DNA from: Malacoraja senta
Lineage: Eukaryota
Reading direction: 5' to 3'
NCBI GenBank assembly: GCA_038087875.1
Contig: CM075991.1
Location: 9,736,001 to 9,799,882, forward strand
DNA length: 63,882 nt
Program-made: the position numbers and the translations under genes
Part shown: piece after piece, positions 3,129 to 56,218 of the stretch
Position numbering within the stretch: the stretch's first letter is position 1
How the letters are laid out: the number at the start of each line of letters is the position of its first letter
Notes under the pieces: model-generated
The model's input: the letters and a program-made list of their open reading frames with translations, nothing else
Databases searched by the model: none
What the model was told of the DNA's origin: nothing

Positions 3129-3269
3129 TAATCAGTGCAAGACTGTTCATTCAGCTAACTAACAAAACATGTTGAGTGGCAGTTTGCTTGCAACAGAAGA
3201 CATGCACAATAGATGTTACATTGTCAAAATAAAACCCACATCTTAACAAAAAAAATGAACATCCCATAC

Positions 3270-3360
3270 CTTGGTTATAGGGTGAAGTGGACATCAGCGC
3301 ATTTAGGCCAGAGAATGATGATTTAATTGAATAGAAGAAATGACAGTGAAAGCATTTCAT
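3270..3360 (-). CDS. PPP2R2A: Alternative first coding exon of a PP2A B55 regulatory subunit, B-beta2-like leader MKCFHCHFFYSIKSSFSGLNALMSTSPYNQ(A); probably PPP2R2A
   Basis: aagATG start, 30 codons + 1 nt, then a CAAG|gtatgg donor in phase 1, as needed to join the common ADIISTVEF exon. Resembles the recalled PPP2R2B B-beta2 leader MKCFSRYLPYIFRPPNTILSSSCHTE(A). Paralogue assigned only from EBF2-PPP2R2A divergent synteny. Confidence 0.65.
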
Positions 3361-3877
3361 CTTCTGCAGTATACTGATATGCTGCCGGAGTTTCATTTAT
3401 TTACACCACAGCCCAAAACAAGAAAGGAGTAAACCCTTCTATCTATTTATACTGTTTCAATTAATAACGGAAATTGTAGACTCTTGTCCTGCAATGGGAG
3501 AACGTGTGGCCTAAATGCATACAAAACAACCTCTGTCCCTCTTTTCATCTCCTGCCTAGTTTGCTTTTTCTTTAAAAAACTGCAACCCTTTGACTGGAGG
3601 AGCCTTTTGGAAGAGGGGGGGGGGGGGAGGAAATCAGCTAACCGCACTGTAAAGAATTATCTGTAAAATGCGGAATTCAGCTGCCTGTATCTGCAGCACC
3701 AGTATTCAAACCCGATGCTGTTTAACTCTGACATTGAGCTCCTTCCCTAGATACAGCAGCAATCCAAAATTAAAAGAGACAACGGCTTCCTGCAAAAAGT
3801 CGATGGTTTTCCCCATCCCTAGAAGTGCCAGCCTTTATGGCATTAAACACTGAAAGAGCATAATCCTGCTGTGCTTA

Positions 3878-3897
3878 CCAAGGTCAAAGTGACGTCA
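3878..3897. promoter_or_regulatory. Compact motif cluster: SF-1/ERR-type CCAAGGTCA, DR1-like AGGTCAAAGTGA and full CRE TGACGTCA
   Basis: Sequence CCAAGGTCAAAGTGACGTCA lies ~520 bp upstream (on the - strand) of the MKCF exon, in unique DNA. Confidence 0.35.
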
Positions 3898-25828: not shown

Positions 25829-26497
25829 AGGGCCTGTCCCACTTACGTGTCCTTGGCATGCAAATTACGCGACCTCATCGTTGCATTGAGGCGCATGGGC
25901 ATCGTATGGCCGCGCGGGGCCGGTCCCACAGAGAAGCGCGGAGGGGTATGTAGTTGTGCGCGACATCTCGCGGGGCTCCGAAATTTTTGTAGCGAATGAA
26001 ATCTTCGCACGGCAACGGCCTGTCACGTAACTGACGGCCAAAGTGGGACAGGCCCAAGACCCAACGCAATGTCTCACCTCCAACAGCAGCAGAAGCAGGC
26101 AAACGATCGCCAAGCTCGGCCTGGGGCTCACAGCTGTTGCGGTCCGGATCCGCCCCCACTTCCACTCCCAGAGCGGGGCCAAGAAAAATGAAGATAGACA
26201 CAAAATGCTGGAGCAACTCAGCGGGACCGGCAGCATCTCTGGAGAGAAGCAATGGGTGACGTTTCGGGTCAAGACCCTTCTTTCAGACTGAAGAAGAGTC
26301 TCGACCCGAAACCTTCTCTCCAAAGATGCTGCCGGTCCCGCTGAGTTACTCCTGCATTTTGTGTCCATCTTCAAATGATGTCACGCGCTCCAGACGGCTG
26401 TGCGGGCGCATGAAATCGCGCGCGACCTTCGCGGGCGGCTCAACGCGACGAGGTTGCGTAATTAGCGTGCCAAGGACACGTAAGTGGGACAGGGCCT
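25829..26497. mobile_element. Composite Harbinger-type MITE carrying an internal TIR end and a Penelope foldback
   Basis: ~47-bp outer TIRs AGGGCCTGTCCCACTTACGTGTCCTTGGCA.../...TGCCAAGGACACGTAAGTGGGACAGGGCCT with TTA/TAA flanks; internal GTGGGACAGGCCC at ~26043-26055; foldback at 26190-26373. Confidence 0.8.
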
Positions 26498-27476
26498 TAA
26501 GCCAGAAAGGCTAAAATGTTACGGAAAGACGGGTAATACCAACTGGACTGCATGAGTGGACTTTCTTATCGTAAACAAATGGGCGGAAGCACGTCGCTGA
26601 CCTAAATACCAGAAGTGACATGGATCGTAAGGAAGCAAGCCGATCACAAGTTTAACTCTACCCAAGAAGAACTGTGAAACCAATAAGCACACTCAATTTT
26701 TGTTGCACCAGAAACTAAGTGATTGTGAAAACTGATGATCGGGTAAGCATTGGCTGAATATGGAATCACGAGGAAAAGGAACCTGCCACTGCTATCTCAT
26801 TTAAACATGCAGCTTGACCTCCACACTAGGCTTGGCCCAGTTCTAAACCTGGCAGTGTCAGAACCCTGTGAGCCCATCAGGGCAGTCGAGGCAGTATTTG
26901 ATCAAAAGGATAGTCTGGAACTTTCACCATCACATCTAATCTTCATGTCCACCACTTCCCTCACAAAACATTTTCCAAATACATAATAAAATGTTTACAA
27001 AATAAATATCCAACTCTATCTCTCCATTATTCCAGGGACAGGTTATTAATCCCACGACTTTAAAAAAAATCAAAATATTCAGGGTTGGGTCACAGGGATG
27101 ACACATCTGCTGATGCACAATACCTTTTTCCATCACGCAATTCACATATTTTTAAAAAAAATGAAGGCACTCCTCAGCCAAGGTGTTATGTCAATGTCCT
27201 ACAAGTGATGAAACTGCTCAGAAAATACTTTTTTTTACAATTTCTGTAAGTACAGGTAACCTTAGCATTACCTCATTGCATAGAACAGAAGAAACTGGAC
27301 CAGTTGTGGAACCAGATCAGAAACAGTGACACACCTCTGTATAATTCTCACAATGAAATTGAGTCACAAGATGCAGATCCAATGTTCAATTCCTGGCATA
27401 TACTCAGCTGGAACTGTGGACAGGGGGCTTCTCAATTGCCTTAAGCATATGTATCTAGGGTTTTCTCCCAAAGACA

Positions 27477-29600: not shown

Positions 29601-29800
29601 NNNNNNNNNNNNNNNNNNNNNNNNNNNNNNNNNNNNNNNNNNNNNNNNNNNNNNNNNNNNNNNNNNNNNNNNNNNNNNNNNNNNNNNNNNNNNNNNNNNN
29701 NNNNNNNNNNNNNNNNNNNNNNNNNNNNNNNNNNNNNNNNNNNNNNNNNNNNNNNNNNNNNNNNNNNNNNNNNNNNNNNNNNNNNNNNNNNNNNNNNNNN
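29601..29800. other. Assembly gap (200 N)
   Basis: Run of N of round length, typical of a placeholder; true size unknown. Confidence 1.
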
Positions 29801-33472: not shown

Positions 33473-33541
33473 CCGCTGCTGTGAAAAGAAGAGCTGTGGC
33501 AACAGGAACGAAACTCCATCGGACCCCGTCATCATTGACAG
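33473..33541 (+). CDS. EBF2: COE/EBF transcription factor exon 6 (zinc knuckle of the DNA-binding domain), (S)[22 protein letters not shown](R)
   Basis: Branch point TTCTAAC, polypyrimidine tract and TTGCAG acceptor; 69-bp exon; CAG|GTAAGG donor. Matches the conserved COE sequence; CCEKK rather than CCDKK favours EBF2 over EBF1/3. Confidence 0.93.
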
Positions 33542-54080: not shown

Positions 54081-54824
54081 CATAAGTTATAGGAGCAGTG
54101 TAAGACCATTCGGCCCATCAAGTCTACTCCGCCATTCATTCATGGCTGATCTATCTATCCCTCGGCCACCGTGCTAGAATTCGCGCCTCAGTTGCTCTGC
54201 GGGAGCAGCTTCTCCAAGGAGGGCTAAAGTGGCTCAAGAAGAAGCCTCACCATCTTCTCACGGGCAACTACAGGGCGCGCAGTAAATCTGGCTTTGCCTC
54301 TAACATCCCCATCCAGCAAATTAATTTACAAAGAAGAACAAAACCTCCAAAGTGCTTCGTCGCGTCCTGGGATGTCCTGAGGTTTCGTATGTTGAGATGT
54401 AAATTCAACACTTGCTTTATCGGGAGCGTATCAGTGGTGGGGCTTGCTGTCAGTGCAATGACTCGCTGGAGGAGTGAGATGAAGAGGCTGTCAGGAGTGA
54501 TCGTGTTTGATGTTCAGGCTCTCTGCCTCTCTTTCTCTCGCTGTCTGTCAGCCTCCCTGCAGCCACCAGGGAGCTGTTGAAGCTCAGGTTTCAGTGTCTC
54601 TGCATTAACCAGTCCCTTCGTGACTCACTCTCACAAGGCTGCCTGCAAAATGAAAGGCTTGCAGAGAATCTTCACCCAGCTAACAGTTTTGCACAGTTTA
54701 CGGCTCTTTATTTCAGGCATGGGTTCCCATCCTCATTGCTCACACGTTACATAAAATGTTACAGTGGCTGCGACGTACTCACACCGAAAAACAGAGGCCT
54801 TCTTGCCAGTGTCATGGGCCCATA

Positions 54825-55453
54825 CTACACCCACATACAATCACAAATACACACGCATGCTCACACGCATACATGCACACGCACACATGCACACACAATC
54901 GCAGACACACACGCACAATCACAGATTCACACGCACAAACACAGATACACATACGTACACGCATGCACACACGCACATGCACACATTTACAATCACAGAT
55001 ACACATATGCACACACACACGCACGCACAATCACAGATACACGCACACATGTACACACAATCACAAATACACACGCACAATCAGATTGACACGCACAAAC
55101 ACAGATACACATACGTACACGCATGCACACACGCACATGCACACATTTACAATCACAGATACACATATGCAAACACGCGCACCCGCACAATCACAGATAT
55201 ACACGCACACACATACGCGCTATCACAGATACACACACACACACGCGCACAATCACAGATACACATACGTACACACACGCACATATTTGCAATCACAGAT
55301 ACACATATGCACACACATGTACACACACATGCACACCCACACATGCTCAAGCACACAATCGCGCACACACTCACAGCCACACACACAGATGCACAGATGC
55401 ACATATACACACACACACACACAGAGATGCACAAACGCACACAAACACACACA

Positions 55454-55521
<68 letters not shown>

Positions 55522-55545
55522 TGCACACACGCACACAAACACACA

Positions 55546-55627
<82 letters not shown>

Positions 55628-55643
55628 GATGCACACACGCACA

Positions 55644-55694
<51 letters not shown>

Positions 55695-55820
55695 ACACAC
55701 ACATACACACACATACACACACATAAACATATAAAAACACATGTAGACATGCATACAGACTTGCGAATAGACACACCAAAAACACATGCACACACTTACA
55801 AAAATACACACATACACACA
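54825..55820. repeat. CA-rich micro/minisatellite with a recurring ACAATCACAGATAC unit
   Basis: Direct reading; source of the His/Thr and Val/Cys ORFs. Confidence 0.95.
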
Positions 55821-56218
55821 TAAAAAATCCACATGATTTCCCTCGACAATCACTCCCCTCCGTCTGGGCGGAATTGTCCTCACCCTCAGCATCATCTGTT
55901 TCGACTCCCCTGACTTTATCCAAGATAGTCACCTGTCCATTGTTCTCCAGGGATGCTGCCTGACCCACTGAGTCGCTCTGGCACTTGGTGTCTTTCCTTG
56001 GTAAACCGGCATCTGCAGTTCCTTGTTTCTACACCTCCTGCTATATACGTAGGGCCCACAGGACAATGCCGGTGTATGGAGCTTGATCAAGTGACCAGGC
56101 TGGCACCTGGAGAAAACCCACGCAGGTCACGGGGAGAACGTACAAACTCCATACAAACAGCACCCCTAGTTAGAATCGAACCCAGGTCTCTGGCTCTGTA
56201 AGGCAGCAACTCGACCGG

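Follow-up and report, generated by a model that had tools for sequence, protein, structure and literature searches.

An alternative first exon of PPP2R2A in Malacoraja senta, conserved to birds, probably related to the B-beta2 leader exon and possibly encoding a membrane anchor

Introduction

Can a leader of the kind known from B-beta2, a neuron-specific splice form of PPP2R2B, stand at the head of another B55 gene, and what would it do there? The question is raised by a stretch of Malacoraja senta DNA of 63,882 nucleotides (the window; C15:9736001-9799882 of assembly G000), in which a first-pass annotation had marked an ATG exon as a mitochondrial leader of B-beta2 type belonging to PPP2R2A.

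The exon and its gene

The coding part of the exon lies at 3270..3360 on the minus strand and comprises 30 codons and one base (phase 1). It ends in CAAG|GTATGG, with the splice donor GTATGG at 3264..3269 (minus strand) and the intron running from 3269. Translation of this interval gives the annotated 30 residues, and the 91-bp exon is single-copy in the assembly, in agreement with its reported position in unique DNA. From the B55 core to the assembly gap at 29601..29800 it is the sole MKCF start among 927 minus-strand ATGs. An in-frame upstream ATG at 3396, immediately 3' of a stop codon, precedes the main ATG by 12 basic codons (3361..3396, minus strand) and could open a 42-residue long form. 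The exon would very probably be transcribed from its own TATA promoter and spliced onto the ADxIST exon in place of the ordinary first exon; the candidate TATA box, TATAAATA at 3444..3451 (minus strand), stands 84 bases upstream of the main ATG and is a putative element whose motif is common elsewhere within the window. Six matching sequence runs are contigs that continue through the donor as DNA does and are uninformative on expression. About 440 bases upstream of the TATA candidate a CRE palindrome (TGACGTCA, 3890-3897) is present at chance level (38 of 100 shuffles), and a nuclear-receptor-like site, CCAAGGTCA, adjoins it within 3878-3897.

In the 200 kb examined beyond position 1, eight minus-strand B55 exons were found between C15:9721777 and 9710194. 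Among them is the ADxIST-type exon that the first-pass annotation had proposed to look for, 17.5 kb below the donor, and the phase-1 GT donor is compatible with this second (shared) B55 exon. The split G together with CT of the next exon (C15:9721777) gives Ala, so that the junction reads Gln-Ala-Asp-Val-Ile-Ser-Thr, the Q-ADxIST junction of bird and snake proteins. In B55 trees without an invertebrate outgroup, the core protein clusters with named B-alpha (support 100/98 with 28 rows and 100/99 with 19 rows); under LG+G4, placement with B-beta is rejected at p-AU 0.0012 and with B-delta at p-AU 0.0038. A separate B-beta gene lies on C2689 of the same genome and a gamma gene on C1. The downstream gene is thus PPP2R2A and not PPP2R2B, as had been proposed.

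The neighbourhood agrees with this. A BNIP3L-like gene of three exons occupies C15:9681206-9688843 on the minus strand, 21 kb past the PPP2R2A stop. At 33473..33541 on the plus strand lies an internal EBF/COE exon (23 of 24 residues identical to COE1 structures, E replacing D), whose gene runs divergently from PPP2R2A and has later exons at C15:9862471 and 9866675. The opposite-strand EBF exon had been annotated correctly. PPP2R2A is here flanked by the divergent EBF gene and the same-strand BNIP3L-like gene, as in human; the paralogue labels EBF2 and BNIP3L are putative. Downstream of the BNIP3L-like gene, identical translated stretches occur at C15:9540219-9540451 and 9612483-9612715 (L021, L014), about 72 kb apart, and at other offsets too; this repeat is a local duplication or an assembly duplicate.

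The ordinary B-alpha first exon (QWCFSQVKG type) was not found in the window or the genome, nor were EBF exons upstream of 33473 found on C15. An assembly gap of 200 N at 29601..29800 is a candidate hiding place for missing 5' exons, and it probably conceals both the ordinary PPP2R2A first exons and the 5' EBF exons. Elsewhere in the window, 54700-55900 is a long CA-rich microsatellite array that creates spurious long open frames, and 560-790 and 25830-26500 are CpG-rich elements with inverted ends and CCTGTCCCACTT-like termini, the second split by SINE-like pieces; they probably represent a small DNA transposon family and not a promoter.

Three B55 loci were found in the assembly (alpha on C15, beta on C2689, gamma on C1). 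B-delta and all QWCFxQVKG exons were not found in the whole assembly, gamma locus included, which suggests that 5' ends are absent from it. Identity to P0083, from a cluster that also contains a named Scyliorhinus protein, is 86-98% for most of the gamma-type exons. The first coding exon of gamma, of MGEDID type and followed by a GT donor, lies at C1:246298545 (L047), 66 kb upstream of the shared exon; an MKCF-type leader was not found in the 400 kb upstream of gamma, a region with five gaps in which the control exon was recovered (score 98). In other species the QWCFxQVKG first exon is carried also by gamma-type proteins of cartilaginous fish and by B-beta of birds and mammals (P0083, P0181, P0186, P0188, P0192; P0032, P0066, P0087, P0218), and this spread makes it likely that several first exons were present in the ancestral B55 gene and were kept unevenly by its paralogues.

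The leader in other vertebrates

Stored proteins that share the junction were sampled as the best 120 of 638 matches plus at most 15 members per cluster. Of the alpha-type records 10 of 87 have an M[KE]CF.C leader, of the beta/gamma/other records 1 of 129, and of the delta-type records 0 of 22; the B-beta2 leader occurs in 14 of the 129 beta/gamma/other records of the same sample. The named carriers are Callipepla, Colinus, Bambusicola, Columba and Naja, and others are P0125 (three RefSeq accessions), P0131 and P0230/P0234/P0237, with P0125 and P0230 being RefSeq predicted isoform models. All amniote leader proteins are predicted gene models, which come from several independent annotation sources and share the same junction. 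Predicted PPP2R2A isoforms such as XP_009915624.2, XP_068776739.1, KAF7242113.1 and KAG8141335.1 carry the orthologous leader with the same length and junction, some of them with the same 12-codon upstream extension; they are unnamed automatic models without an attached function. In P0038 21 additional residues follow the leader. P0234 and P0237 place the ordinary exon upstream of the leader exon, which fixes the exon order.

The window leader is identical to the bird, snake and P0131 leaders at 13-15 of 30 positions, a fish-amniote identity of about 50%. A profile made from 5 amniote B-alpha leaders gives the window exon a score of 72.6 and rank 1 of 527,586 six-frame windows (the next scores 33.4), and in pairwise comparison with the amniote leaders it outscores 5000 of 5000 shuffles, also when the first four residues are kept constant. 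The window leader and 8 amniote leaders have 12 invariant positions (MKCF.C.F....KS......ALM......Q), and Cys3 and Cys6 are present in the window, in 10 of 10 B-alpha leader records and in P0153. The cross-species conservation that had been asked of such an exon therefore exists, on B-alpha of birds and a snake. From the profile rank and the presence of the leader in amniote B-alpha records it follows that, judged by sequence comparison, the exon is a real, ancient and orthologous first exon of PPP2R2A. Tyr10 and the Asn, residues that the first-pass annotation listed as kept, are not conserved among B-alpha leaders.

The 12-codon extension has the same length in P0131 and P0230, with 5-6 of 12 residues identical, and ranks 1 of 263,844 minus-strand windows. 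When the 42-residue leader was compared with proteins in a word-indexed search, no match at E<=10 was obtained; a single match among 50% representatives was a repeat-rich unrelated peptide and was rejected, and in the Atlas the best score was an uninformative 0.76, with no family. No leader was found in records with a visible mammal name within this sample (best 120 of 638 and at most 15 per cluster); loss in mammals is weakly suggested. No description of a B-alpha leader isoform was found in the literature searched, most subscription journals being outside its coverage, and the leader, already present in automatic bird and reptile annotation, is apparently undescribed.

Variation in two close relatives was also compared. 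In organism B the exon has 0 of 91 listed differences and its flanks 13 of 341 (p 0.044), and in organism C 1 of 91 and 11 of 341 (p 0.24), the sole exon change altering a residue (Asn20His); the relatives' sequence runs were found through this very stretch, which biases the test, and constraint on the exon DNA is only weakly indicated. The donor GT is unchanged in both organisms, with +4 changed in B, and the TATA candidate at 3444-3451 has no listed change in either. In 3361-3396 each of the 3 listed changes in B and C is an amino-acid change, and a 3-base insertion is present in C, for which reason the use of the 12-codon extension is uncertain.

Kinship with the B-beta2 leader

Both leaders are alternative first coding exons joining in phase 1 to the ADxIST exon, here by fit, the junction itself being present only in other species' models. 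In common they have the K-MKCF start, a basic residue 13 and a hydrophobic-hydrophobic-Ser block that is equally far from the donor in both. A Lys codon precedes MKCF in the window and in 9 of 9 records whose frame extends upstream; MKCF follows 4 of 24,939 ATGs in 664 kb, and K-MKCF only one, that of the 3270-3360 exon. With the alignment fixed at the donor, the final 11 columns resemble B-beta2 to a degree reached by 17 of 20,000 shuffles (all leaders) and 35 of 20,000 (amniotes alone), this block having been picked after inspection; if gaps are allowed freely, the figures are 225 for the window, 550 for all leaders and 1640 for amniotes only, each of 20,000. Of 13 B55 N-termini compared with the 3' block, that of B-beta2 scores highest (10.0, the next 2.5). 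When the first four residues are kept constant, the similarity of the whole leaders is within chance (336, 860 and 2714 of 5000 shuffles). No likeness to B-beta2 is apparent in residues 5-13, and with a B-beta2 profile alone the exon falls outside the top five windows of 264 kb. Common ancestry of the two exons is quite probable, the likeness being confined to two anchors, K-MKCF at the start and the last 11 residues at the end.

There are clear differences as well. The leader described here stands on PPP2R2A and has 30, not 26, residues, and 7 distinct B-beta2 leaders differ from one another at few positions, as against the roughly half-identical alpha leaders of fish and amniotes. It could be argued that a conserved regulatory or non-coding element was mis-called as an exon, or that the likeness to B-beta2 is convergent, since MKCF also arises by chance or in repeats and the middle of the leader is unlike B-beta2. 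Such a reading is quite improbable, as it has to face the exact length of 30 codons, the phase and 12 invariant residues between cartilaginous fish and amniotes, a junction shared by several independent annotation sources, and two anchors in common with B-beta2.

P0153 (XP_061412570.1), probably a lamprey protein by its tree position, has a leader that resembles the alpha leaders more closely (17 of 5000 shuffles) than it does B-beta2 (340 of 5000). It keeps Cys3 and Cys6 with Glu2 and has a net charge of 0 over 18 residues, and its core falls outside the four paralogue clades, alpha and beta placement both being unrejected (p-AU 0.116 and 0.184). This pattern is compatible with, but no proof of, an old exon that had the cysteine pair in its ancestral state. 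It is conceivable, though rather unlikely as a complete scenario, that the pre-duplication vertebrate B55 ancestor had a cysteine-pair membrane-anchor exon, that B-alpha kept it in sharks and rays, reptiles and birds while it was apparently lost in mammals, and that B-beta swapped Cys6 for Arg and so turned it into a mitochondrial import signal. The B-beta2 exon was not found in this genome, which does not show its absence, as C2689 starts 11.6 kb before the ADIIST exon. One candidate for it proved to be a chance match that contains a stop.

Possible function of the leader

The function first proposed for the leader was mitochondrial. As a cryptic import signal like that of B-beta2, it would let the propeller stall at TOM and hold PP2A-B-alpha on the outer membrane, with Drp1-dependent fission as the outcome and the Ser/Thr block as an off-switch. 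For B-beta2, PMC11780858 describes arrival at the outer membrane through TOM, counteracted by phosphorylation of Ser20-22. The likely common ancestry, with MKCF and basic residue 13 kept, speaks for the same route here, as do the absence of acidic residues up to position 28 (net charge +2 to +3), the charge of the 42-residue forms (net +4 to +6 over 18 residues) and STS at the same splice-site distance as Ser20-22. Against it, the helical moment (Eisenberg scale, first 13 residues, 2000 shuffles) is 0.35-0.48 versus 0.78 in B-beta2 and not or barely above shuffles (343, 64 and 388 of 2000, versus 0 of 2000 for B-beta2). The amphipathic pattern of B-alpha leaders generally is reached by 64-1730 of 2000 shuffles, again versus none for B-beta2, and the long forms are also not amphipathic beyond shuffles. 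The first 18 residues hold 0 hydrophobic-x-x-hydrophobic-hydrophobic motifs, versus three in B-beta2. Arg6 of B-beta2, which judging from an R6A mutant is reportedly needed for mitochondrial targeting, is replaced by Cys. The regulatory serines, annotated as kept, are so only in part: STS stands here, while birds have SVS, P0131 SAC and the cobra AAG, without the serines; P0153, moreover, has Glu2. So far, then, a mitochondrial role is not supported by these features, and it is best regarded as a doubtful though substantial possibility.

The missing amphipathic pattern, Cys in place of Arg6, the variable serines and the fixed cysteines lead to a different proposal, an S-acylated membrane anchor, which is ranked slightly above mitochondrial targeting and would itself fall somewhat short of an even chance. 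Fixed residues in the alpha leaders are Cys3, Phe4, Cys6, Phe8 and Lys13; since Cys3 is also invariant in mitochondrial B-beta2, only Cys6 is specific to them. A DHHC acyltransferase might, as one tentative step, acylate Cys3 and Cys6, helped by Phe4, Phe8 and Lys2; in the long form the 12 further basic residues would aid membrane attachment, and release may be adjusted through the Ser/Thr block at 24-26, in the manner of Ser20-22 of B-beta2. PSD-95 (Cys3/Cys5) and GAP-43 (Cys3/Cys4) are comparable in having an N-terminal cysteine pair among hydrophobic residues and no myristoyl glycine, and PMC2156213 reports that such pairs direct palmitoylation in both, even when moved inward by 6 residues. 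The leader differs from them in its CxxC spacing and in the absence of homology; it lacks the five consecutive hydrophobic residues that the rule for those proteins requires, position 5 being His, Pro or Arg, and its acylation is putative.

Use of the leader exon would also remove the blade-closing N-terminal strand, leaving a 'notched' B-alpha like a published deletion mutant. According to PMC12675759, deletion of B-alpha residues 1-26 opens the propeller and relocalises B-alpha, with enrichment gained at the axon initial segment of mouse neurons, and the blade-closing strand is likewise absent from B-beta1 and B-gamma; the present case is unlike these in being a natural isoform with a hydrophobic, acid-free leader versus the acidic B-beta1/B-gamma tail. 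The leader might accordingly have no address of its own and simply let notched B-alpha join the B-beta1/B-gamma sites, such as the axon initial segment, or other partners. It takes the place of the same 27 residues without supplying the WCFSQVKG strand, which suits this explanation; the 12 invariant residues, most of them far N-terminal, are left unexplained by it, and B-beta2 is also without the strand yet mitochondrial (same source). This explanation is improbable. AlphaFold2 models of the bird isoform P0125 (pLDDT 30 and 36.5) are too poor to show the notch. The best explanation overall, to be held tentatively and at a little under even confidence, is a conserved alternative N-terminus of B-alpha, likely the same ancestral exon as in B-beta2, tied to membranes by S-acylation of Cys3/Cys6.

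Significance

In the usual view B-alpha is the B55 subunit that occurs everywhere and diffusely, and N-terminal targeting belongs to B-beta. That B-alpha has kept a leader between cartilaginous fish and birds probably points to a second targeted B55 holoenzyme in non-mammalian vertebrates, one that would be invisible to mammal-centred work. For B-beta2, a product of the SCA12 gene, the alpha leader offers a natural comparison from which it may be learned what makes B-beta2 mitochondrial and how targeting arose. If the proposed anchor is true, membrane-bound PP2A-B-alpha would be a form as yet unstudied, and an ancestral anchor exon would allow an import signal to be traced back to a lipid anchor.
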